A DNA stretch of 64,000 nt from Candidatus Parcubacteria bacterium (GCA_026004495.1 BPJG01000001.1:144582-208581); one strand, 5' to 3'. Shown: positions 9,961 to 43,646, counted from the first letter of the stretch. Notes: generated by a model not told the origin, from the sequence alone. Made by a program: numbers and translations.

Positions 9961-12513
9961 ATGGAAAAATTAATTGAGTTTTCTCAGAAAAGTGAAACTG
10001 AAATTTTAACCGAATTAAAAACTTCTCAAGAAGGATTAAATGAAAAAGAAGCTGAAAAAAGATTAAGAAAATTCGGTTTAAATAAAATTTCTTCTTTTAA
10101 GATTGATCTTTTAGAAATTATTAAAAGAAATTGTCTAAATTTTTTAAATATTTTTCTTTTTATTGCTGGTTTACTTTCCTTTTTAATTAAGGGTCCTGAA
10201 GTTGAAACCAATTTAATTTTTTTCTTTTTAATTCTTTCAATTTTAATTGCTATTTTTCAAGATTATCGAGTTAATAAATTAAGTGAAAAACTTTTGTCTT
10301 ATTTTAAGAATTATGCTTGGGTTAAAAGAGACGGTAAATGGCAGGAAATTGAAGCTGAATATTTAGTTCCTGGTGATTATGTTAAAGTTCAAGCTGGTTA
10401 TTTAATTCCAGCTGATATAAGAATTTTAAAAACAGAAGATGCTTTAGTTGATGAATCAATAATTACTGGTGAAAGTGAGCCAATATATAAAAACGCGGAA
10501 CTATCAGAACTTATACAGAACTTACAGAAAAATTCAGCTAGTTCAGCGTCAGTTCTGCGTAGTTCTGTTATTCCAGAAAATATTTCTCTTTTGGGTACAA
10601 CATTAATAAAAGGAGAAATTGAAGGAATTGTTTTGGTTACCGGTAAAGAAAGTTATTTTGGTTCAATTGCTAAAAAAACAATTGAAATAAGTAAAGAAAC
10701 TGCCTATGAAAAAATGATGGATCAATTCGCTAAAAATATTTCTTTCCTTGCTATTTTAATTGCTTTAATAATAATTTCTATTAATCTTTTAAAGCCAGGT
10801 TATCCAAATTTTCAAGAATTAATAATTTTTTCAATTGTTTTAGCTGTTGCCATTGTACCAGAATTTTTGCCAACAATGACTGTTTTAGCTTTAAGTTTGG
10901 CTGGAAATAGATTAGCTAAAAAAGGGTTAGTTATTAAAAGACTTTCATCAATCGAAGACTTAGGAGCAATTCAAATTTTATGTACTGATAAAACAGGGAC
11001 AATTACAACGAATGAATTAAGGTTAGAAAGAATTATAACACAAACTGGAAACGAACAACAAACAGACAAAGCTGAGATAATCAATATGAATACTATGACC
11101 GAACATTCCGCATTAAGTCCAGATAAGTCCATGTTTATAAAATATTTTTTAGCAGACTATTATTTCACTCAAGAAGCTACTCCTTATGACAAAGCAATTT
11201 TAGAAAAAATAAAAGAAATGTCTGATTACTCAAATTGGGAATTAATTGAAGATACCGATTTTGATCCAATCAAAAGAATAAGAAAAATTATTGTTAAAGT
11301 AAATGATGGAATTATCGAAATTGTTAAAGGTTCACCTGAAGAAATTGCTAAAATAACTCAAGATGATAATTGTTTAGAGATTTTTAAACGAGAAGATAAA
11401 AATGGTTTAAGAACATTAGCTTTAGCTGTAAATAATAAATTTTTAGGCATTGCTTCTTTTGTTGATCCTTTGAAAGAAAGCGCTTTTTCAGCTATTAATT
11501 TAGCTAAAAGATTAAATTTAGAAATAAAGATTTTAACAGGTGATTCATTAAATGTTGCCCGAGCTGTTGGTTTAAAACTTGGTTTAATTGAAGAAAATGA
11601 AAGGGTTGTCTTAGGAGAAGAAATAAGAAATTTAACTGGTGAAGAATTGAAAAAAATTGTCAAAGAAACAAAGATTTTTGCTCGCGTTTTACCTGAAGAT
11701 AAACTAAAAATTATCGAGGTTTTACAAAAAGAAAAATTTGTTGGTTTTTTAGGTGAAGGAATTAACGATGCTCCAGCTTTAAAAATAGTAAATGTTGCTT
11801 TAGCTGTTGATACTGCTACTGATATTGTTAAACAAGAAGCAGATATTATTTTAAAAGAAAAAGATTTGAAAACAATTATCGATGGTATTTATCAAGGCCG
11901 AAAAGTTTTAGAAAATATTGGTAAATATATTAAGCATACAATGAGTGATAATTTTGGCAATTTAACTTCAGTTGCTATTTTAACTTCAATTTTGCCTTTC
12001 GTACCAATGACACCACTTCAAGTTTTATTAACTAATTTTTTAACTGATATTCCTTTGATTGCTTTTGCTAATGATAATGTTGAAATTAAAGAAATTAAAA
12101 AGCCGGTAAAAATGTCAAGCTATCATTTAATTTTACTTCTTTTAGGTTTAGGTATTATTGCTGGAACTATTAATATTCTTGGTTATTTAATTGTCAAAAA
12201 TCAGTCAATTGAAATTATTCAAACTTATATCTTCTTTTTAACAACAATTACTGGTTTAATTGTTTCATTTCTTATCAGAACCAAAAATTGGTTCTTTTTA
12301 TCAAAACCAAGTAAATCTTTTATAATCGCTTCAATTATAGGGCTTATTTCAACTATAGTTTTTATATTTTTGCCGTCATTCAATAAAATTTTTGGATTTT
12401 CATCTTTAAATCAAAAATTAATTTTTACTTCATTAGTTTTAATCTTAGCCTTTATTTTAGGAACTGAAATTGTCAAAAAAGTCTTTTATAAAAAATTTCC
12501 AGATGTAATTTAA
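9961..12513 (+). CDS. cation-transporting P-type ATPase (P2/P3-like)
   Basis: TGES, DKTGTIT and GDGINDAP-like (GEGINDAPAL) motifs, PEFLP in TM4, about 10 TM segments. Confidence 0.85.
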   Translation: MEKLIEFSQKSETEILTELKTSQEGLNEKEAEKRLRKFGLNKISSFKIDLLEIIKRNCLNFLNIFLFIAGLLSFLIKGPEVETNLIFFFLILSILIAIFQDYRVNKLSEKLLSYFKNYAWVKRDGKWQEIEAEYLVPGDYVKVQAGYLIPADIRILKTEDALVDESIITGESEPIYKNAELSELIQNLQKNSASSASVLRSSVIPENISLLGTTLIKGEIEGIVLVTGKESYFGSIAKKTIEISKETAYEKMMDQFAKNISFLAILIALIIISINLLKPGYPNFQELIIFSIVLAVAIVPEFLPTMTVLALSLAGNRLAKKGLVIKRLSSIEDLGAIQILCTDKTGTITTNELRLERIITQTGNEQQTDKAEIINMNTMTEHSALSPDKSMFIKYFLADYYFTQEATPYDKAILEKIKEMSDYSNWELIEDTDFDPIKRIRKIIVKVNDGIIEIVKGSPEEIAKITQDDNCLEIFKREDKNGLRTLALAVNNKFLGIASFVDPLKESAFSAINLAKRLNLEIKILTGDSLNVARAVGLKLGLIEENERVVLGEEIRNLTGEELKKIVKETKIFARVLPEDKLKIIEVLQKEKFVGFLGEGINDAPALKIVNVALAVDTATDIVKQEADIILKEKDLKTIIDGIYQGRKVLENIGKYIKHTMSDNFGNLTSVAILTSILPFVPMTPLQVLLTNFLTDIPLIAFANDNVEIKEIKKPVKMSSYHLILLLLGLGIIAGTINILGYLIVKNQSIEIIQTYIFFLTTITGLIVSFLIRTKNWFFLSKPSKSFIIASIIGLISTIVFIFLPSFNKIFGFSSLNQKLIFTSLVLILAFILGTEIVKKVFYKKFPDVI

Positions 12514-33109: not shown

Positions 33110-34924
33110 ATGAAAATAAAAGAAATAACAAAAAAAGTAATAATTATAATTTTGTTTTTAGCTATTATTTCATCAAATTTTATATTTAAAAAAAACTTAC
33201 TGGCAAATTTAATTTATTTTTATCCCCAAAATTGTTTAGGTAGTTTTATTAATCCTGAAAAAGCCCAAGGAAAACCTGAAGTTGATAGTCCAGATTTAAT
33301 AAATGAATCAAATTCTGCTGTTTATTTAGGTGGTTTTAAAGAAATTTATTGTGGAAATTTTCAAGGACCAGAGGCTAAAGGAGACATTAAAAAAATAACA
33401 TTACATTTTAATTGGATTATCACTAAAGAAAAAAATGGGGATTCGATAATTAAACCAACCTCAACAGAATCAAATATTTTAGAAAAAATAATTCCTTCAA
33501 AAACAATAGAGTTTGAATTTAATACTTCTCCAACTCCAACACCAGAAACAACCTCAACAATTGAATCAACATCAAGCCCAGAAATAAATTTTTTATTCAA
33601 CAAAGATCAACTTCTGCGTAGTTCTGCATTATCTTCTGTTAGTTCTGCGTCAGTTCTGCGTAGTTCTGCGTTTGATCTGCGTGAGTCTGCTTTAATAAAA
33701 TTTGTCTTTGCTCAAGAAACAACAACATCGCTTGAAACAACACCAGCTACAGAATCAAACTCAGAATCAACCACTATTAATACCCAAACCGAAACAGCAA
33801 CCCAAACTATAAATGAAACTCAACAATCTTTACCAGAAAATCAATCAGCAGAGCTATCAACAACTTCTACTTCAACAAATAATCAAATAGAAAATATCAC
33901 TTCTTCTACGACTACTCAAACATTAACCACCGCTTCACCAGCTGAAAATCAAAATGAAACTAATACAACGACAACAATTTTAGAAACAACCACAACACCA
34001 ATTTTAATACCTCCTAAAACTTTATTTGAAATTCACTATACCTTAGATGGTCAAAATTGGAATTATTTAGGTAATATAAATGAAAATAATTGGCAAAATA
34101 TTTCTTTTGAAATTCCAGTAAATAATTGGCTTGATATATCAAAAATTCAAATTAAGATAAATTCTTTACCAGAAACTGATTATTATCTTTATTTAGAATC
34201 AATGTGGTTTGAGATTGAATATGAAGAAAAAAACGAAGAAGATGAAGTTTTTGATATTTTAGGGAATTATAAGACAAATATCATTGTTTCTAAAGAGAGT
34301 TTCGAGCTTGATGAAATTCCTTACTTTGAATTTAAGATTTCTAAAAACAATAATGAAAATGAAATTGACATTTCTGAAATTAAATCAATTAATATAAAAG
34401 TTTTTAATTCCAATAAGGAGCTAATTTTCCAAACCAATAAGCTGGATTTTGATTATGATTCCAAAAATTTTTCTTTTAAATTAGATAATTTTCTAAAATT
34501 ATATCCAAATAGTTATAGATTAAAAATTTATTTAAATAAATATTTAGCCGGAGAATATGATTTCAATTGGGGAGGAAATATTGTTAAAGAAGAAAAAATT
34601 GACTCAGATAAAGAATTAATATTTATTGATTTTAATAATAAAAATCAAATATGGAATTTAACAAAAAGTGATATAAATAGTTTTGAAAAGATTTGGGAAG
34701 GCAAAGAATTTCCAAATTATAAAATTATTGATAGCTATCTAATTTTAAATTTTTCAGAAACAATTTTAGGCTATGACTTATTAAGTAAAACATCTTTTAC
34801 TTATACCTTTGAAAAATCAACTTCAACAATAATTAATATCAACAATAAAAAATATTCAATTTCACCAAATTTTGATTTTTTAGAAATTAATGAATCTCCA
34901 GAAAATGAAAATCAAGTTTTCTAA
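33110..34924 (+). CDS. secreted S/T-rich surface protein (604 aa)
   Basis: Signal peptide, a long T/S/N-rich linker that is probably glycosylated, and a C-terminal globular region. Overlaps the start of the giant gene by 35 nt. Confidence 0.55.
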   Translation: MKIKEITKKVIIIILFLAIISSNFIFKKNLLANLIYFYPQNCLGSFINPEKAQGKPEVDSPDLINESNSAVYLGGFKEIYCGNFQGPEAKGDIKKITLHFNWIITKEKNGDSIIKPTSTESNILEKIIPSKTIEFEFNTSPTPTPETTSTIESTSSPEINFLFNKDQLLRSSALSSVSSASVLRSSAFDLRESALIKFVFAQETTTSLETTPATESNSESTTINTQTETATQTINETQQSLPENQSAELSTTSTSTNNQIENITSSTTTQTLTTASPAENQNETNTTTTILETTTTPILIPPKTLFEIHYTLDGQNWNYLGNINENNWQNISFEIPVNNWLDISKIQIKINSLPETDYYLYLESMWFEIEYEEKNEEDEVFDILGNYKTNIIVSKESFELDEIPYFEFKISKNNNENEIDISEIKSINIKVFNSNKELIFQTNKLDFDYDSKNFSFKLDNFLKLYPNSYRLKIYLNKYLAGEYDFNWGGNIVKEEKIDSDKELIFIDFNNKNQIWNLTKSDINSFEKIWEGKEFPNYKIIDSYLILNFSETILGYDLLSKTSFTYTFEKSTSTIININNKKYSISPNFDFLEINESPENENQVF

Positions 34925-37900
34925 AAAAGCCTTTGTAAAGGTAAGCAACTTAATTTTAACTCTAATTCTATTAATTTCGCTAAATTTTTCTTATTTTATT
35001 TTAAGTAGTTTTAAATTATCAAAACAAAAATTTAAAGATAAACTTGTTAAAGAAGCGCAGGCAGTTTCTTTTTTCCATCCCACTAATGGCATCTTAGTTA
35101 CTGGTTCAGAAACAGCTTTAAGTAATTCTAATGTTGGCTCATGGCGAGGTTTATTAGGTAATGACTCAAATTATTGGCAAGTAGCCAGAGTTAATCCTGG
35201 AGGTTTAAATCTTTTAATTTATTTTGATGGAGTTGAACTTTATGGAGCTAATAAAATGATTATTACAATTGAAGATTCAAATATTATTACTGGTGATGCT
35301 TATATTCATCAAATTTGTGATTGGGTTGATTCAACTGGAGTTGATAATCCTGCTGATACTGATTGTACTGGTGGTGGTTGGCGAACATTAAATCCAAGAA
35401 AAACAACCTATACTAATATTGCTGATACTATTAGATCTTATGAAATATATAATGGTTATTTTTCAACCAGAGCAGCCTCTCCAGGAACGGTAATTAATAC
35501 TCCTTTATCTAATTTTATTGAACCAACAAATAAAAGAGTCTTAATAAGAGTGTATTCAACTGTCAATTCAACAACTAATTTAAGAATTGATTGGGCGCAA
35601 ATTGAAGTCGCTATTGATCCCTTTTATCAAAATGCTGGTATAACCTTAACTTCAGCTGGAGCAACAACTAACTTTATCTCTGACCTAATTGGTGCTCCTT
35701 ATCCTGGACCCAATAGTTCTGATAATGTTAAATTAACAATTCCTATGCCAGCAGCTAATCAACCAATTGATTTCTATTTCTCTTTTAAAAATGTCAAAAC
35801 TTATACTGGAATGAATACTATTTTAGTTGTTCCTGAAATTTGTGTTTCTAATACAGCTCTAACTTTTGATGTTTATTTGTGGAATTTTACTACTAATTCT
35901 TGGACTAAAAGACCAGGAACAGCTATTACTGGAACTGCTTGTACTACTGATACTGAATATGGTTTTGCTTTTAATCAATATACTATATCTGGTTTTAATT
36001 TAGATGATTATATTTCTAATGGTGAAATTAGAGTTAGGTTTTTAACCAATAATCCAGCTACTGTTTATAATATCCAACTTGATAGAATTTATATCTTTTT
36101 AGGTTCAGTTAATACTAATTCCTCAGCCTGTGAAATATCTTGGGGAACAGGAACAGCTTCAGATTGTGTTAATACCAGAGATATGAACGAAGGTTTAACT
36201 GCTAATCCAACAACTCTTACTTGGCAAACAGGAGCAGTAATTGAATATCCTGCTGGCTATCATCCCTTAGATAACGATGATGATATTACTAATGGTGAAT
36301 ATGCTTTTTCTTCTAATTTAGATTTTCCAGTAACTTTATCTTCTAATATGTCAGTAACTGCTATTCATTATGCTGGCAAATATAGATCAAATGCAACTTC
36401 AATTACCGTTAAACCATCAATTAGAGTTTATGGAGGTTTACCTGGTATTTATAGGAAAGCAGCAGGTTCTGGTTGGCGTGATACTCCCGGATCTGGTACT
36501 AATGCAGCTACTACTTATTCTTATTTTGATACCTTTAGAGTTCCTGAACTTCAAGTTGATGCACCAGATCATATTGATACAGTTAATAATCGAATGAATA
36601 TGAGATTAAGAACTTCAGCTTCAACTAATACTGCTGGTGGTGTAACTAGAGATTGGGATTTTGCAATGATGAGTATTAGATGGGTGGAAGAACCAAATAG
36701 AGTAACAATTACTAAAAATTTCCACCCCACTAACGGTATTTTAGTTACTGGTTCAGAAACAGCTTTAAGTAATTCTAATGTTGGCTCATGGCGAGGTTTA
36801 TTAGGTAATGACTCAAATTATTGGCAAGTAGCCAGAGTTAATCCTGGAGGTTTAAATCTTTTAATTTATTTTGATGGAGTTGAACTTTATGGAGCTAATA
36901 AAATGATTATTACAATTGAAGATTCAAATATTATTACTGGTGATGCTTATATTCATCAAATTTGTGATTGGGTTGATTCAACTGGAGTTGATAATCCTGC
37001 TGATACTGATTGTACTGGTGGTGGTTGGCGAACATTAAATCCAAGAAAAACAACCTATACTAATATTGCTGATACTATTAGATCTTATGAAATATATAAT
37101 GGTTATTTTTCAACCAGAGCAGCCTCTCCAGGAACGGTAATTAATACTCCTTTATCTAATTTTATTGAACCAACAAATAAAAGAGTCTTAATAAGAGTGT
37201 ATTCAACTGTCAATTCAACAACTAATTTAAGAATTGATTGGGCGCAAATTGAAGTCGCTATTGATCCCTTTTATCAAAATGCTGGTATAACCTTAACTTC
37301 AGCTGGAGCAACAACTAACTTTATCTCTGACCTAATTGGTGCTCCTTATCCTGGACCCAATAGTTCTGATAATGTTAAATTAACAATTCCTATGCCAGCA
37401 GCTAATCAACCAATTGATTTCTATTTCTCTTTTAAAAATGTCAAAACTTATACTGGAATGAATACTATTTTAGTTGTTCCTGAAATTTGTGTTTCTAATA
37501 CAGCTCTAACTTTTGATGTTTATTTGTGGAATTTTACTACTAATTCTTGGACTAAAAGACCAGGAACAGCTATTACTGGAACTGCTTGTACTACTGATAC
37601 TGAATATGGTTTTGCTTTTAATCAATATACTATATCTGGTTTTAATTTAGATGATTATATTTCTAATGGTGAAATTAGAGTTAGGTTTTTAACCAATAAT
37701 CCAGCTACTGTTTATAATATCCAACTTGATAGAATTTATATCTTTTTAGGTTCAGTTAATACTAATTCCTCAGCCTGTGAAATATCTTGGGGAACAGGAA
37801 CAGCTTCAGATTGTGTTAATACCAGAGATATGAACGAAGGTTTAACTGCTAATCCAACAACTCTTACTTGGCAAACAGGAGCAGTAATTGAATATCCTGC

Positions 37901-38828
37901 TGGCTATCATCCCTTAGATAACGATGATGATATTACTAATGGTGAATATGCTTTTTCTTCTAATTTAGATTTTCCAGTAACTTTATCTTCTAATATGTCA
38001 GTAACTGCTATTCATTATGCTGGCAAATATAGATCAAATGCAACTTCAATTACCGTTAAACCATCAATTAGAGTTTATGGAGGTTTACCTGGTATTTATA
38101 GGAAAGCAGCAGGTTCTGGTTGGCGTGATACTCCCGGATCTGATACTAATGCAGCTACTACTTATTCTTATTTTGATACCTTTAGAGTTCCTGAACTTCA
38201 AGTTGATGCACCAGATCATATTGATACAGTTAATAATCGAATGAATATGAGATTAAGAACTTCAGCTTCAACTAATACTGCTGGTGGTGTAACTAGAGAT
38301 TGGGATTTTGCAATGATGAGTATTAGATGGGTGGAAAGACCATTTGCACCACCAACAATTACTTGCTCTTTTTCAGCAACTTCAACTTCTTTTTCAAGTT
38401 TATCTCCTTCAGCTGTTTCTACTTCTTCACCTGATATAACAATTACCGTTACCTCTTCTGCTGGTTTTATAATTTCTGTTAATAATGCTGGAGATGGAAC
38501 TAACCCAGGTCTTTATAAATCAACTGCGCCAACATATTTAATTCCTTCACCCGATTCTTCATTTTCTGCAACTGCAACTTTATTTGCTGGCACAGATGGG
38601 TATGGTATTCAAGCAACAACGACTAATTCAAATATAAATATTAATGTAAGGTATAATGTTAGTGGATATACTGTTGGAGGTTTGACAACAACAACCATTA
38701 CTTTGGCAAGCTCTTCAGCTTCTGTTTCTTCGGCTCAAATTACTATTAAACACAAAGCATCTATTTCAGCCTTAGCACCAATAGGAAATTATCAGGATAC
38801 AATAACATATAGTTGCACAAGCCCGTAG
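34890..38828 (+). CDS. giant surface protein (1312 aa) with internal 549-aa tandem duplication and C-terminal SCPU/CsuA-B-like beta-sandwich domain
   Basis: N-terminal TM/signal. Two near-identical 549-aa units. The C-terminal ~160 aa resemble the stand-alone protein at 39426..40085 and pilin-like SCPU domains (see findings). Confidence 0.7.
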   Translation: MNLQKMKIKFSKKAFVKVSNLILTLILLISLNFSYFILSSFKLSKQKFKDKLVKEAQAVSFFHPTNGILVTGSETALSNSNVGSWRGLLGNDSNYWQVARVNPGGLNLLIYFDGVELYGANKMIITIEDSNIITGDAYIHQICDWVDSTGVDNPADTDCTGGGWRTLNPRKTTYTNIADTIRSYEIYNGYFSTRAASPGTVINTPLSNFIEPTNKRVLIRVYSTVNSTTNLRIDWAQIEVAIDPFYQNAGITLTSAGATTNFISDLIGAPYPGPNSSDNVKLTIPMPAANQPIDFYFSFKNVKTYTGMNTILVVPEICVSNTALTFDVYLWNFTTNSWTKRPGTAITGTACTTDTEYGFAFNQYTISGFNLDDYISNGEIRVRFLTNNPATVYNIQLDRIYIFLGSVNTNSSACEISWGTGTASDCVNTRDMNEGLTANPTTLTWQTGAVIEYPAGYHPLDNDDDITNGEYAFSSNLDFPVTLSSNMSVTAIHYAGKYRSNATSITVKPSIRVYGGLPGIYRKAAGSGWRDTPGSGTNAATTYSYFDTFRVPELQVDAPDHIDTVNNRMNMRLRTSASTNTAGGVTRDWDFAMMSIRWVEEPNRVTITKNFHPTNGILVTGSETALSNSNVGSWRGLLGNDSNYWQVARVNPGGLNLLIYFDGVELYGANKMIITIEDSNIITGDAYIHQICDWVDSTGVDNPADTDCTGGGWRTLNPRKTTYTNIADTIRSYEIYNGYFSTRAASPGTVINTPLSNFIEPTNKRVLIRVYSTVNSTTNLRIDWAQIEVAIDPFYQNAGITLTSAGATTNFISDLIGAPYPGPNSSDNVKLTIPMPAANQPIDFYFSFKNVKTYTGMNTILVVPEICVSNTALTFDVYLWNFTTNSWTKRPGTAITGTACTTDTEYGFAFNQYTISGFNLDDYISNGEIRVRFLTNNPATVYNIQLDRIYIFLGSVNTNSSACEISWGTGTASDCVNTRDMNEGLTANPTTLTWQTGAVIEYPAGYHPLDNDDDITNGEYAFSSNLDFPVTLSSNMSVTAIHYAGKYRSNATSITVKPSIRVYGGLPGIYRKAAGSGWRDTPGSDTNAATTYSYFDTFRVPELQVDAPDHIDTVNNRMNMRLRTSASTNTAGGVTRDWDFAMMSIRWVERPFAPPTITCSFSATSTSFSSLSPSAVSTSSPDITITVTSSAGFIISVNNAGDGTNPGLYKSTAPTYLIPSPDSSFSATATLFAGTDGYGIQATTTNSNININVRYNVSGYTVGGLTTTTITLASSSASVSSAQITIKHKASISALAPIGNYQDTITYSCTSP
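35075..38368. repeat. direct tandem duplication, 2 x 1647 bp, near-identical, inside the giant gene
   Basis: The landmark GTTACTGGTTCAGAAACAGC occurs at 35097 and 36744, an offset of 1647. The translated copies differ at only a few residues, e.g. SGTNAAT vs SDTNAAT. Confidence 0.9.
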
Positions 38829-38880
38829 TTAGTAGCTAGTATCTAGTAGCTAGTAAGTAGTAGCTAAAATCTAGTAGTTA
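38826..38880. repeat. TAG/CTAG-rich repeat R1 (TAGTAGCTAGTATCTAGTAGCTAGTAAGTAGTAGCT)
   Basis: Lies directly after the stop of the giant gene. Related copies are at 39255..39333 (inverted) and 40083..40130 (direct). Confidence 0.7.
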
Positions 38881-38886
38881 AATAAA

Positions 38887-39135
38887 ATGAAAACAAAATC
38901 TTTTAAGGAATTAATAGTTTGGCAAAGAGCAAAAGAATTAACAATAGAAGCTTATAAATTAACATCAAAATTTCCAAAATCAGAACTTTTTGGCTTAACA
39001 AGTCAAATGAGAAGATCGGCAATTTCTATTTCTTCAAATATTGCTGAAAGTTATAATCGATTTCATTCAAAAGAGAAAAAACAATTTTTAGCTGTTGCTT
39101 TTAGCTCCGGAGCAGAATTAGAAAGTCAGATTTAA
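38887..39135 (+). pseudogene. four-helix-bundle protein of the 23S rRNA intervening-sequence / Avd-like family, truncated by in-frame TAA
   Basis: Family pattern WQRAKEL...FPK.E.FGLTSQMRRSAISI.SNIAE...R....E...FL..A.SS..ELE.Q stops at ELESQI-TAA. The same frame continues IAKSL..., which is where family members continue (LIIAK.LGY...). Confidence 0.6.
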
Positions 39136-39254: not shown

Positions 39255-39333
39255 CTACTATTAGATTCTATTTACTAATTTCTAAATTCTATCCTGTATC
39301 TACTAGATCCTACTTACTAGCTTCTAGATTCTG
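39255..39333. repeat. TAG-rich repeat R2, inverted relative to R1/R3 (..CTACTAGATCCTACTTACTAGCTTCTAGATTCTG)
   Basis: Its reverse complement contains GCTAGTAAGTAG and CTAGTAG, as in R1. Confidence 0.65.
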
Positions 39334-39425
39334 TTCAATATTGTGGGAAAAATTTTTTGATGAAATATGATATAATTAAAAAATGAGTTTTCCTGTAGTG
39401 AAACTATAGTTTTTGCTACGGGGGA

Positions 39426-40085
39426 TTGGTCGAAATTAATAAAAAAAATAAAATGAAAAAAGTAAATACATTTCAAAGCTTGATCATTTTGATAAGCATA
39501 TTTTTAGCTATTTATTTTATTTCTGAGTTGTTTATTATACCATCGTCTATTTTAAAGGCTCAAACTAATGTTACTGTTTCAGCAACTGTGACAACAAGTG
39601 TTACTTGTAATTTTTCAACAACAACTACTAATTTTGGTACTATCGATACAAGTGCCGTCTATACTTCTTTGCCTAATGTAACAGCAACTGTTTCTTGTAA
39701 TCCAGCTGCAGGATGTAAGGTAGAAATTAACGATCAAGGATCTGGATCTCAGCCAGGTTTATGGAATTCAACAGCTTCTCATTTAATTCCTTCACCAGAT
39801 TCTGCATTCTCAGCAACTGCAAATTTAGTGGCTGGAACAGAAGGTTATGGAATTCAAGCAGCAACAACTTCAGCTGGATCTGGCGCAACTCTTTCTTTAA
39901 ATTCGAGATATATCCAAACTGGAAATACCGTTGGAGGATTAACAACAACAACTATTCAATTAGCCTCTTCGACATCACCAATATCAAACAGAGAAATTGT
40001 TGTTACTCATAAAGCAGCTGTTTCAAGTTTAACTCCAGCAGGTAATTATCAAGATACAATAACTTATAGTTGTTCATCGAATTAG
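39426..40085 (+). CDS. secreted SCPU/CsuA-B-like beta-sandwich protein (pilin-like), paralog of the giant protein C-terminus
   Basis: Signal peptide. NVTVSATVTTSVTCNF...NFGTID (cf. SCPU TFQVSATVxASCxV...FGTYD) and C-terminal AGNYQDTITYSCSS (cf. AGSYSDTVTVTVTY). Aligns with giant-protein residues ~1150-1312 (GL..STA..LIPSPDS.FSATA.L.AGT.GYGIQA.TT...GGLTTTTI.LASS...KA..S.L.P.GNYQDTITYSC). Confidence 0.55.
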   Translation: MVEINKKNKMKKVNTFQSLIILISIFLAIYFISELFIIPSSILKAQTNVTVSATVTTSVTCNFSTTTTNFGTIDTSAVYTSLPNVTATVSCNPAAGCKVEINDQGSGSQPGLWNSTASHLIPSPDSAFSATANLVAGTEGYGIQAATTSAGSGATLSLNSRYIQTGNTVGGLTTTTIQLASSTSPISNREIVVTHKAAVSSLTPAGNYQDTITYSCSSN

Positions 40086-40160: not shown

Positions 40161-41075
40161 ATGAAAAATTATAAAAATAATTCAATAATTTACTTTCTTT
40201 TAGTTTCTATTTTCTATTTACTAGCTACTAATTTATTGGCTACTAATTTTGTTTTTGCCTTAACTGTTGGGCCAGCGAAATTAGAATTTATAACCGATCC
40301 AGGCCAAACTTTAGAATTTAGTTTATTTGTGAGAAACGATAGCGATTACGATAATAAATATCAAATTATTGTTGAAGGATTTACTGAAGAAGGAGGCGAA
40401 AGAAAATATATTGAAAATCCACCAGAAGTAACTTGGGTTGAAACACCAAAAGATATTTTTCTCAAAGCCAAAGAAGATAAAAATGTTCCAATAAAAATTA
40501 ATGTTCCTAAAGATGCTCCACCAGGAGGTCATTTTTTAGTTTTATGGGTAAGCACAAAGCCTGAAGGAGGTCAAGTAGCAATTGTCTCAAGAGTTGGCTC
40601 TTTAGTTTTTATTAATGTTTCAGGAAATGCAATTTATAAAGCTTATATCAGTGAATTAAAAGCTCCAAAATTTGCTTGGAATTTTCCAGTAAAATTTTCT
40701 TATGTAATTAAAAATGAAGGTAACACTTATATCACACCAAAAGGAGATATTGAAATTAAAAATATTTTTGGCAGATTAATTGCTGATTTACCAATAAATC
40801 CAAGAGAGCTTCAAGTTTTACCTAATACTTCAAAAAATTTTGAGCAAGAATGGAAAGCAAATTTTGCTCTTGGTATTTATAAAGCTATTTTTAATTTAGA
40901 ATATGCTAATTCAAGAGATTCTTTAACTCATTGGCTTATTTTTATTGATCTCAAAGCCCTGATAATAATTTTACTTATTCTTATTTTTGCAATCTTCTTC
41001 TTACCAAGATTGATTAAAAAATATAATGAATGGATAATTAAAAAGTATACGCAAAATAAAAATATAAATGAATGA
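40161..41075 (+). CDS. secreted beta-sandwich (Ig/CARDB/DUF916-like) protein with C-terminal TM anchor
   Basis: Signal peptide, about 250 aa predicted all-beta (TVGPAKLEFITDPGQTLEFSLFVRNDS...), C-terminal hydrophobic helix plus a basic tail. The family assignment is tentative. Confidence 0.45.
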   Translation: MKNYKNNSIIYFLLVSIFYLLATNLLATNFVFALTVGPAKLEFITDPGQTLEFSLFVRNDSDYDNKYQIIVEGFTEEGGERKYIENPPEVTWVETPKDIFLKAKEDKNVPIKINVPKDAPPGGHFLVLWVSTKPEGGQVAIVSRVGSLVFINVSGNAIYKAYISELKAPKFAWNFPVKFSYVIKNEGNTYITPKGDIEIKNIFGRLIADLPINPRELQVLPNTSKNFEQEWKANFALGIYKAIFNLEYANSRDSLTHWLIFIDLKALIIILLILIFAIFFLPRLIKKYNEWIIKKYTQNKNINE

Positions 41076-42127: not shown

Positions 42128-42224
42128 CCACACGAATGCCAACGAATCAAATAAGCACACGAATGGCAACGAATTATATAATATTTGTGTGCAATTCGTG
42201 TTAATACACGAATGGCGATGAATT
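42128..42224. repeat. repeat family 2, left copy: tandem CACACGAATGGCAACGAAT units plus an internal inverted copy
   Basis: CACACGAATGCCAACGAAT, CACACGAATGGCAACGAAT, and GTGTGCAATTCGTGTTAATACACGAATGGCGATGAAT. Confidence 0.7.
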
Positions 42225-42275
42225 AAAATATAGAATTAGTAACAATTTGTGTAATTATGTACGAATAATAAAAAA

Positions 42276-42641
42276 ATGAACGTAAATATTAATAAAAACC
42301 AGAGTAGAAATATTTTGTATAAAGAGCTTTCTTGCAAGCTACAAGATATCTTTTTTAAAATAAGAAATGAGTTGGGTAGTGGTCATAAAGAATCAATTTA
42401 TCAAAATGCCCTGGCTAAAGAATTAGAAAAGAATAAAATAAACTTTCAAAGAGAATATCCGGTGAAAATATATTCAAAAGAAGGTTATTTCTTAGGATTA
42501 TATAAACCTGATTTTGTAATAGATAATAAGATAATAATAGAAGTTAAAGCGAAAAGTTTTTTGTCAAAGCAAGAAAGGATAATTATTTATGATTATTTAA
42601 AAAATAGCGAGTTTGAAGTCGCTTATATTGTAAATTTTTAA
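42276..42641 (+). CDS. GxxExxY protein (PD-(D/E)XK nuclease-like small protein)
   Basis: The motif GHKESIY (G-x-x-E-x-x-Y) is followed by L(G/Y)KPDFVIDNKIIIEVKA, a D...E.K core. Size 121 aa. Confidence 0.65.
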   Translation: MNVNINKNQSRNILYKELSCKLQDIFFKIRNELGSGHKESIYQNALAKELEKNKINFQREYPVKIYSKEGYFLGLYKPDFVIDNKIIIEVKAKSFLSKQERIIIYDYLKNSEFEVAYIVNF

Positions 42642-42713
42642 TCTAAAAAATTATTTTTCAAAAGATATATTTTTACAAACAATAGAAAGCCATGGTTAAA
42701 AAATATAAAATAA

Positions 42714-42766
42714 AATTCGTGTGCCATTCGTGTAATATTATTATATATTCGTACCATTCGTGTAGT
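42714..42766. repeat. repeat family 2, right copy, inverted (ATTCGTGTGCCATTCGTGTA ... ATTCGTACCATTCGTGTAG)
   Basis: Reverse complement of the CACGAATGG(C/T)ACACGAAT units found upstream of the gene. Confidence 0.7.
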
Positions 42767-42773
42767 TATAAAA

Positions 42774-43646
42774 ATGTCTAGGATTTATATACAAAGTGAT
42801 AAAAAAATGAATACTGATAAAATTATTATACCTATCTATCTTGACACTGAGGGAGAATCAATTAATGCTTTTGAAGTTAAAATTAAAATCTCTGACAATT
42901 TAATTTTTAGAGATTATTTAGAGAAAGATTCAATTATTAGTTATTGGATTGAAAGACCCCATGTAGTAGAGCGGAGCTCACTACCTGGCAAACCCAATGT
43001 AGTAGAAAAAAGTTCACCACAAGGTTCTACTACTGAGAACTTGTCTCGTAGTGAACCACAAGGTTCTACTACCGAGATAAATTTTTCTGGAATTACTCCG
43101 GGAGGTTATATTGGTAAAAAAGCTTTATTAGTAAATTTAATTTTTGAAGCTAAACAAAGTGGTTCAGCTTTCATTGAAATCTTGCCTTCGTCCAATGTTT
43201 TGTTAAATGATAGCTTAGGAACAAAAGCAAAATTAATAACTGAGAAATATAGTTTTATTTTAAACCGAACTCAGGAGAAGAAAATAATAATTCAAGATAA
43301 TTACCCACCCGAGCCATTTAAGGTTTATCTTCAAAAAGATAAAGAAATTTTTAATAATAAATATTATCTTGTTTTTTATGCCCAAGACAAACAATCAGGA
43401 ATATCTTATTATGAAGTTAAAGAAGGTGATTATGATTTTGAAAAAGCTTCATCACCATATCTTTTAAAAGATCAATCTTTAAGAAGTTATGTCTATATTA
43501 AAGCAGTTGATCGAGCAGGAAATGAACGAATTGAGATTTTTAAACCTCGAAAATTATTTTTGTTAGAGGAAATTTTATCCTTGATTTTTTTTATTGTTAT
43601 AATATTCTTAATATTTCTAATTTTCAATAAAAAATTTAAGAAATAA
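42774..43646 (+). CDS. membrane-anchored cohesin-like domain protein (second copy) with in-frame repeat insertion
   Basis: The N-terminal beta domain resembles the 30238..31677 protein (IIIPIYLDTEGESINAFEVKIKISDNLIF...EINFSGITPGGYIGKKALLVNLIFEAK...AFIEIL). There is a C-terminal Ig-like region plus a TM anchor. An inserted segment RPHVVERSSLPGKPNVVEKSSPQGSTTENLSRSEPQGSTTE is encoded by short direct and inverted repeats. Confidence 0.5.
   Translation: MSRIYIQSDKKMNTDKIIIPIYLDTEGESINAFEVKIKISDNLIFRDYLEKDSIISYWIERPHVVERSSLPGKPNVVEKSSPQGSTTENLSRSEPQGSTTEINFSGITPGGYIGKKALLVNLIFEAKQSGSAFIEILPSSNVLLNDSLGTKAKLITEKYSFILNRTQEKKIIIQDNYPPEPFKVYLQKDKEIFNNKYYLVFYAQDKQSGISYYEVKEGDYDFEKASSPYLLKDQSLRSYVYIKAVDRAGNERIEIFKPRKLFLLEEILSLIFFIVIIFLIFLIFNKKFKK

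Follow-up and report, generated by a model that had tools for sequence, protein, structure and literature searches.

The stretch of Candidatus Parcubacteria DNA analyzed here (GCA_026004495.1 BPJG01000001.1:144582-208581, 64,000 nucleotides, one strand; hereafter the window) carries at positions 42128-42766 a small gene of the GxxExxY family, embedded between arrays of short inverted repeats. By analogy with RAYT transposases and their repetitive extragenic palindromic (REP/REPIN) sequences, we suggest that this feature is a copy of a selfish, palindrome-flanked PD-(D/E)XK nuclease cassette, a reading that we regard as evenly poised between right and wrong. The flanking inverted repeats are a property of the whole subfamily to which the gene belongs, and the cassette at this locus is an old insertion, kept in at least 25 loci and partly decayed in the window. 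From these arrangements we infer a nuclease activity, the arms as its substrate and a route of mobility.

The window comes from the metagenome-assembled genome (MAG) KatS3mg094, with KatS3mg095 (locus L001) as its sister genome. Relatives were drawn from 80 metagenomic loci whose GxxExxY protein is 41-65% identical to that of the window; 65 of them had sufficient flanking sequence for the arm test described below. The orthologous site comprises 25 loci, among them the window, L001 and L002.

A nuclease-fold gene between inverted repeats

The open reading frame (ORF) in the window matches both PF13366 PDDEXK_3 (E=9e-25, 87.7 bits, cut-off 22) and TIGR04256 GxxExxY (E=3e-24, 85.7 bits, cut-off 35). 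Its characteristic motifs read GHKESIY (GxxExxY), KPDF (PD) and IEVK (ExK), and the corresponding columns are invariant or nearly so in two family alignments (A1, A2). An AlphaFold2 (AF2) model of an intact, 88%-identical homologue shows the PD-(D/E)XK fold with a predicted local distance difference test (pLDDT) score of 89. The window copy itself is cut by a premature TAA at 42639-42641, where all relatives have a glycine, and its profile match stops at position 105 of 116, short of a full-length domain; reading through the TAA (SKKLFFKRYIF...) restores the match to positions 3-116 of 116. In terms of the modeled homologue, the premature stop removes a confident β-strand, residues 127-132, which is the last strand of the fold. 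The sister genome has a different lesion at the matching codon (approximately 10363-10375), namely a 1-nt deletion in an A-run, where the window has GGx changed to TAA. Truncation that is tolerated or selected could account for differing lesions at one codon, as could a sequencing error in the A-run. The GGx to TAA change requires two to three substitutions, and the ratio of nonsynonymous to synonymous substitution rates (dN/dS) between the window and L001 is nonetheless 0.13. Over the first 120 codons dN/dS is 0.08-0.13, below that of the neighboring genes (0.18-0.32), and the GxxExxY gene is under purifying selection. The two small ORFs described in the original prediction are therefore present, but not as first read: the GxxExxY frame ends at a premature TAA, and the Avd-type frame upstream contains a stop codon and a frameshift.

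The placement of the gene between inverted repeats was confirmed by the profile matches together with shuffling: three forward units and one inverted unit precede it, and two inverted units follow (Table 1). A 10-nt core, ACACGAATGG, allowing at most one mismatch, occurs in six copies in the window, all of them at this cassette, whereas 0.7 copies are expected from shuffled sequence and none of 100 shuffles reached six. When the segment 42110-42790 was folded as RNA, the 5' arm paired with the 3' arm in both the minimum free energy (MFE) and the centroid structure, with the ORF in the loop (z = -5.8; none of 20 shuffles was as stable). The proposal of a 366-bp gene in the loop of a potential long stem is thus borne out at the level of prediction. 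In this stem R3 pairs with the region of F1, and the internal inverted unit R1 is able to form local hairpins with F2 or with F3; the 3' arm alone does not fold (z = +0.7). The units contain no stop codons in their sense frames, and when translated the forward arm gives a hydrophilic and the inverted arm a hydrophobic peptide.

Chance similarity of low-complexity sequence, or an artefact of assembly, would be a natural suspicion in an AT-rich MAG, all the more as many weak chance inverted repeats were listed here. The shuffled core counts refute this explanation, as does the recurrence of the same architecture in dozens of independent assemblies, where the arm test separates loci from controls by 86% to 0%; we consider it next to impossible.

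Table 1. Coordinates of the cassette, its host genes and the neighboring repeat elements in the window.
Feature	Start	End	Strand	Basis
Forward unit F1 (ACACGAATGCCAACGAAT), two ACGAAT hexamers 10 nt apart	42130	42147	+	repeat scan
Forward unit F2 (ACACGAATGGCAACGAAT)	42157	42174	+	repeat scan
Internal inverted unit R1	42183	42201	-	inverted-repeat scan
Forward unit F3 (ACACGAATGGCGATGAAT)	42206	42223	+	repeat scan
Degenerate unit remnants (ATTTGTGTAATT / GTACGAAT), just 5' of the start codon	42245	42266	.	read from sequence
GxxExxY / PDDEXK_3 nuclease-fold ORF, 121 aa	42276	42641	+	Pfam/TIGR profiles, alignments, AF2 model
C-terminal coding remnant (SKKLFFKRYIFTNNRKPWLKNIK*), in frame past the premature stop	42642	42713	+	read-through profile match; homologue P0003 (145 aa) has an intact equivalent
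Inverted unit R2 (reverse complement ACACGAATGGCACACGAAT)	42715	42733	-	inverted-repeat scan, fold
Inverted unit R3 (reverse complement ACACGAATGGTACGAAT)	42747	42763	-	inverted-repeat scan, fold
Upstream host gene, Big_6/dockerin-type surface protein	41072	42124	+	Pfam; its stop is the left cassette boundary
Downstream host gene, surface protein with C-terminal transmembrane (TM) segment	42774	43646	+	homologue comparison
Second cassette: forward CTAGNAG array (38826-38880), Avd/23S_rRNA_IVP ORF (38887-39135), inverted array (39255-39335)	38826	39335	+	
ORF-less CTAGNAG palindrome	40082	40246	.	inverted-repeat scan

Phased arms across the subfamily

For the arm test, 230 nt around each gene start was aligned by Smith-Waterman with the reverse complement of 230 nt around the gene end, and 102 displaced mock genes served as controls. 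GxxExxY loci (n=65) had a median score of 35 and a median z of 8.0, with z>4 in 86%, as opposed to a median score of 18, a median z of 0.2 and z>4 in 0% for the mock genes (Mann-Whitney p=6e-27). On average, arms contain 3.5 units upstream and 3.2 downstream. Successive units are spaced by exactly 10 nt in 95 of 265 distances, with lesser peaks at 11-12 and 21-22 nt; at this spacing of one helical turn, the units resemble an array of sites for protein binding. The unit varies by lineage (CACTAAT, CACGAAT/A, CACGGAT, CACAGAT, CGCAGAT, GCGGAT; the consensus is roughly C-R-C-N-R-A-T) and is always common to both arms of a cassette. Unit number also varies, with more than 20 units around the gene in the relative L002 vs. 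about six in the window.

Arms are evident in cassettes from Syntrophorhabdus, Amesbacteria and Bacteroidota (z 7.6-10.7). In one Amesbacteria MAG and one GC-richer Syntrophorhabdus MAG, GxxExxY genes are bordered by ACGAAT-type hexamers, and the Bacteroidota cassette, a chance find in a fetched locus, is built on CACAAAG-TGG-CACAAAG (z 8.6).

Insertion at the surface locus and its age

Empty sites corroborate the suggestion that the cassette was inserted between the structural genes of a surface locus. In L212/L213 the downstream ATG comes straight after the TAA of the dockerin-type gene, and the protein that begins there has an ordinary signal peptide; L130 provides a second empty site. In the occupied relatives L214-L216, approximately 1 kb of hairpin arrays plus the gene separates these same flanks. 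The downstream proteins of L212 (empty) and L214 (occupied) are 75% identical. Every distant homologue of the downstream protein has an ordinary signal peptide; the empty state is thus the ancestral one, and the cassette is therefore an insertion. A dockerin-type gene lies 5' of the GxxExxY gene in 26 of the 80 loci and a homologue of 42774-43646 lies 3' in 23 of the 80; since the flanking proteins in these relatives are only 26-56% identical to those of the window, the arrangement must be old. The position of the cassette varies to some degree, as in some relatives it is found 5' of a WxL-like gene or 3' of the downstream gene.

At eight occupied loci the GxxExxY ORF is stop-free and runs into the downstream gene, such that the inverted units translate to a hydrophobic stretch (e.g., FVAISxxFVAIS). 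In the window lineage the downstream protein begins at its mature domain, without a signal peptide, and this surface protein may have been functionally decapitated by the cassette. Its dN/dS of 0.32 is the highest in the locus. A constant reading frame shared by the cassette and the downstream gene was considered and rejected, as the frames split 9/7/9 over the 25 orthologous loci; the frame-0 cases consist of eight metagenomic ones, all stop-free fusions, and the window, which has two stops in frame. Elsewhere (P0215, P0225, P0264 and others; L214 2500-2650) an ORF-less palindrome encodes the whole signal peptide of the downstream protein, with forward CACGAAA units giving the basic n-region (HEKTRKGKVNRHENTRK) and inverted units the h-region (FVLFSVVVILFFVLFSV).

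Family architectures and in-frame copies

A profile search of 1.84 billion cluster representatives (50%-identity clusters, E<=1e-3) returned 20,495 clusters that match the subfamily profile. Among the best 150 of these 20,495 matches, the domain is stand-alone in 53, fused N-terminally in 34, present as a tandem of two domains in 30, inserted internally in 25 and fused C-terminally in seven, with one other arrangement. Tandem representatives (P0037, P0058, P0064 and others) are approximately 265 aa long and contain two GxxExxY domains. The hosts of internal and C-terminal copies include RecG, EF-Tu-type GTPases (including LepA), GT1/GT4 glycosyltransferases, GatB, Wzy, RtcB, asparagine synthase and DHFR.

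In RecG (L188, L190, L196, L199) the cassette lies in frame between helicase motifs II and III. The identity between inserts parallels that between the RecG proteins themselves (0.90 vs. 0.91-0.93; 0.53-0.56 vs. 0.53-0.60), and the two arms change in concert, from GCAGAT/ATCTGC in L188 to GCGGAA/TTCCGC in L199. GatB (L201) likewise has an in-frame GxxExxY cassette and, in addition, an ORF-less palindrome translated in frame (TETRIDADNKNRG...SASVIIGDDQRENPRESAS). A third case is the C-terminal subunit of transketolase (L001 13778-15265, and L216 from approximately 6054), where the insert separates Transket_pyr from Transketolase_C. Short inverted repeats of the CGCGAAC / GTTCGCG type flank this insert and are visible by eye; the alignment score did not detect arms there (z=0.5). 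The junction peptides of the RecG, GatB and transketolase inserts are encoded by the arms.

Fixed in-frame sites in RecG (motifs II-III), GatB, EF-type GTPases and RtcB resemble the host range of inteins and homing endonucleases, and PD-(D/E)XK homing endonucleases such as I-Ssp6803I exist. The cassette could accordingly be a free-standing homing-endonuclease gene without intron or intein, which cuts empty alleles at conserved sites and is copied during repair, the repeats being a by-product of repair or recombination. We think this very unlikely: the arms, which are universal in the subfamily, are phased and highly ordered, ORF-less hairpins of the same units stand alone, and the RecG insert co-diverges with its host with no sign of horizontal transfer. 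Inteins proper do not account for these copies either, as the RecG, GatB and transketolase inserts match PDDEXK_3 only, with no Hint/splicing domain.

The ORF-less copy in GatB invites comparison with other repeats of the miniature inverted-repeat transposable element (MITE) kind. Rickettsia palindromic elements (RPEs) are found in frame in conserved protein-coding genes, where such palindromes are apparently tolerated, as in L201. RPEs, to our knowledge, encode no protein and have no partner enzyme, whereas many copies of the cassette described here carry a nuclease gene.

Arm pairing and RNA processing

The predicted long-range stem that closes the ORF (z = -5.8), and the dependence of the 3' arm on the 5' arm for folding, would equally suit an element acting at the RNA level in the manner of an intervening sequence (IVS) of 23S rRNA. 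The arms would pair in the operon transcript, RNase III would cut, and the separated cassette RNA would leave the stability or translation of the flanking surface-gene mRNA set by this processing. ORF-bearing IVSs are excised by RNase III at the stem of their ends (PMC4990558, PMC11270868), and the cassette, like them, has a small ORF enclosed by a stem that its inverted ends form. The neighboring cassette moreover encodes a protein of the 23S_rRNA_IVP family, i.e., the IVS protein family PF05635, and the decay of both ORFs here recalls the tendency of IVS ORFs to decay, for example S23p of Coxiella (PMC4990558).

Several observations nevertheless speak against this explanation and make it distinctly unlikely. 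Mismatches between the arms show no RNA wobble bias (127 of the G.U type vs. 123 of the A.C type, p=0.85). Obligatory cleavage is hard to reconcile with the long-lived in-frame copies in RecG, GatB and transketolase, which could not tolerate it. The 10-nt phasing of discrete units suits protein-binding sites better than a plain helix. As to location, IVSs occupy helix 25 or 45 of the rRNA, whereas the cassette lies in an mRNA operon or within a gene for a protein: the context is protein-coding at each of the 80 related loci, and an Rfam scan of the window found tRNAs only and no rRNA. The cassette also differs from IVSs in its protein family, PF13366, and in having arms of phased units. Neither the mismatch spectrum nor the read-through copies support the RNA-processing-dependent element that the original prediction had offered as one possibility. 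Nor could we confirm its statement that rRNA intervening sequences are a known setting of GxxExxY proteins, as the literature found documents only the 23S_rRNA_IVP family there; studies of rRNA insertions in the candidate phyla radiation (CPR) report that family alone, itself also uncharacterized (PMC11270868).

Dispersed hairpins of the same unit type

The repeats are not private to the stem around this gene, as had first been supposed, and the ACGAAT-type repeat is a dispersed hairpin family of related genomes rather than specific to the GxxExxY gene. An exact repeat 16-mer was scanned across 596 Gb of contigs; the matches listed are mostly due to chance, the 16-mer being too short, yet among them it occurs in many contigs of several Patescibacteria genomes (Azambacteria, two Paceibacterota MAGs, and Nomura-, Moran- and Paceibacter-type MAGs). 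A typical hairpin has the form [ACGAAT-N4-ACGAAT-N5-7-ACGAAT-N4-ACGAAT][loop][inverted copy] and contains no ORF. Such hairpins occupy precisely the gap that separates a stop codon from the following start codon, also in ribosomal-protein operons, and are predicted to be stable (-33 to -44 kcal/mol, z -6 to -9.5).

At least two remote units matching the cassette's own type were found in 10 of 33 loci. Swapping the units between repeat types gave a mean of 2.5 loci (maximum 8.2), and none of 5000 cluster-based permutations reached 10; a comparison of own and foreign units per kb was not significant (Wilcoxon p=0.11).

In the sister genome, a 1.7-kb insertion (L001 7140-8840) contains two antitoxin-PIN modules, each preceded by ACGAAT-type hairpin arrays. 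The window lacks this insertion, and the flanking genes there overlap by 4 nt (41072-41075). The PIN gene of the first module is disrupted; a direct duplication of approximately 28 bp (AAAAATATTAAAATAAATTTATGAATTT), which takes in the start codon of the dockerin-type gene, delimits the second.

Proposed mechanism and the case against it

On the reading that we favor, of a selfish nuclease cassette, the insertion took place in an ancestor of this Parcubacteria clade, at the precise boundary between the stop of the dockerin-type gene and the part of the next gene that encodes the signal peptide. Vertical inheritance has followed, and the window copy has lost its last β-strand. With the nucleic acid single-stranded the arms may fold to hairpins, or they may be extruded as cruciforms, and in either form would present helically phased sites to the encoded nuclease, which could then promote the copying or spread of units with or without the gene. 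Such spread would leave ORF-less hairpins of this unit type at other places in the genome, in a relation like that of RAYTs to REPs and REPINs. Because the units are stop-free, an element could be read through on landing in a gene, which would explain the in-frame copies in RecG, GatB, transketolase and the GTPases as well as the appearance of arms as signal-peptide or TM segments. The many unrelated contexts of the class fit selfish spread.

The likeness to REP/REPIN-RAYT systems is that one gene lies between cognate short palindromic repeats in inverted orientation, and that it is vertically inherited under purifying selection while the repeat type varies by lineage. ORF-less hairpins with matching units may likewise be scattered through intergenic spacers, as in the sister genome and at 10 of 33 related loci, with none in the 64-kb window. 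Some REPs are also located inside genes, notably replication and repair genes (PMC3733652). The cassette differs from RAYTs in that its protein has the PD-(D/E)XK fold and not that of an HUH/Y1 (IS200-like) transposase, and in that the gene is often fused or inserted in frame; it differs from REPs in that its units lack GTAG or CGTC tags and its arms consist of three to four phased units, not of a single REP hairpin. The repeats do not resemble integron attC sites (RYYYAAC ... GTTRRRY), as CACGAAT/ATTCGTG units stand on both sides with no GTTRRRY core.

A number of findings weigh against this reading and should be kept in view. Hairpin or cruciform arms would be a fitting substrate for a structure-specific nuclease, and the window protein resembles T7 endonuclease I in being small and in its Y-x-P-D-F ... 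E-x-K core; however, this was the sole match among solved-structure sequences, it is weak (E=0.023) and no functional inference from it is safe, and the fold search did not recover it, returning only generic PD-(D/E)XK nucleases. No dispersed units were found outside the cassette within the 64-kb window. Nine distant phage-encoded relatives have no inverted repeats, so the architecture is not universal for PF13366. Inverted ends are present, but at the L212/L214 and L125/L130 junctions we saw no target-site duplication of the kind expected of insertion sequences (IS) and MITEs, and the cassette takes the place of the native signal-peptide segment, which it does not cleanly interrupt. Both the window copy and the RecG copy are old and have co-diverged with their hosts, and thus give no sign of recent mobility for gene-bearing copies. 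Long retention and strong purifying selection would also fit a role beneficial to the host. The earlier suggestion of a small mobile or selfish cassette accordingly holds for the most part: insertion and spread into many contexts stand, while recent mobility of the window copy does not, given that it has been kept at its site under purifying selection.

These last points lead to the possibility that all components are domesticated host parts, with REP-like hairpins serving as mRNA stabilizers, insulators or a source of signal peptides, alongside a host GxxExxY gene engaged in, for example, the processing of branched DNA, and with no ongoing selfish spread. Retention at the same site across deep divergence, a dN/dS below that of the neighboring genes, a RecG insert evolving at RecG's own rate, the precise fit of ORF-less hairpins into the short spacers of ribosomal-protein operons, and inverted arms that encode functional-looking signal or TM segments all agree with domestication, and RAYTs themselves are regarded as domesticated. 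Against it stand the varying presence and position of the cassette within the locus among relatives, the strongly differing unit numbers of close relatives (window and L002), the independent C-terminal lesions in the window and the sister genome, and the occurrence of the cassette in many unrelated host genes. On balance we hold domestication to be unlikely.

Returning to the selfish cassette, we propose more broadly, though tentatively and leaning slightly towards doubt, that GxxExxY genes with phased arms are the autonomous form of an undescribed class of mobile elements, the PD-(D/E)XK counterpart of RAYT/REPIN, in Patescibacteria and other phyla. Members of this class would seed the hairpins of operon spacers and insert in frame into RecG, GatB, transketolase, translational GTPases and RtcB, and their hydrophobic-coding arm would have been co-opted repeatedly as signal-peptide or TM segments. 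GxxExxY / PF13366 is almost absent from the searchable literature, where its function is listed as unknown, and our literature search found no description of a palindrome-flanked nuclease cassette class; the class is apparently large and undescribed. Should the proposal hold, it would provide the very large PF13366/GxxExxY family with the hypothesis of a structure-specific nuclease acting on its own arms, and the REP-like hairpins of genome-reduced Patescibacteria with a possible partner enzyme. Unusual additional segments of essential CPR proteins, and signal peptides encoded by repeats, would find an explanation, and annotators would be cautioned that many "fusion proteins" and odd N-termini in such genomes represent read-through of an element.

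Neighboring elements and other features of the window

The gene of the Avd/IVS family upstream was said to be bracketed by a different inverted-repeat family, and this is indeed the case, the repeats being CTAGNAG heptamers. The ORF matches TIGR02436 and PF05635, and is a pseudogene, interrupted by an in-frame TAA and then by a +1 frameshift; its repaired reading matches TIGR02436 over positions 1-103 of 109. Against NF033474, the profile for Avd of diversity-generating retroelements (DGRs), it scores 20-22 bits, far below the cut-off of 80. The sister genome has an intact orthologue (L001 2745-3101), whose arms use different heptamers (GAATCTA/GAAAATA vs. TAGATTC). In the ORF-less CTAGNAG palindrome, the forward array follows the stop of the gene at 39426-40085, and the inverted array lies in the 5' end of the gene at 40161-41075, where it encodes the hydrophobic core of the signal peptide (YFLLVSIFYLLATNLLATN).

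PADLOC gave no defense-system match, and PHROGs yielded only a weak "endonuclease" match. A scan for consensus promoters and terminators was uninformative, with 11 sites vs. 7.7 expected.

Further upstream, the gene at 34890-38828 encodes a 1312-aa surface protein with two nearly identical segments of approximately 550 aa. Its spurious internal ORFs are duplicated as well (36370-36597 and 38017-38244), and the duplicated segments and ORFs together point to either a very recent large tandem duplication or a collapse/expansion during assembly.

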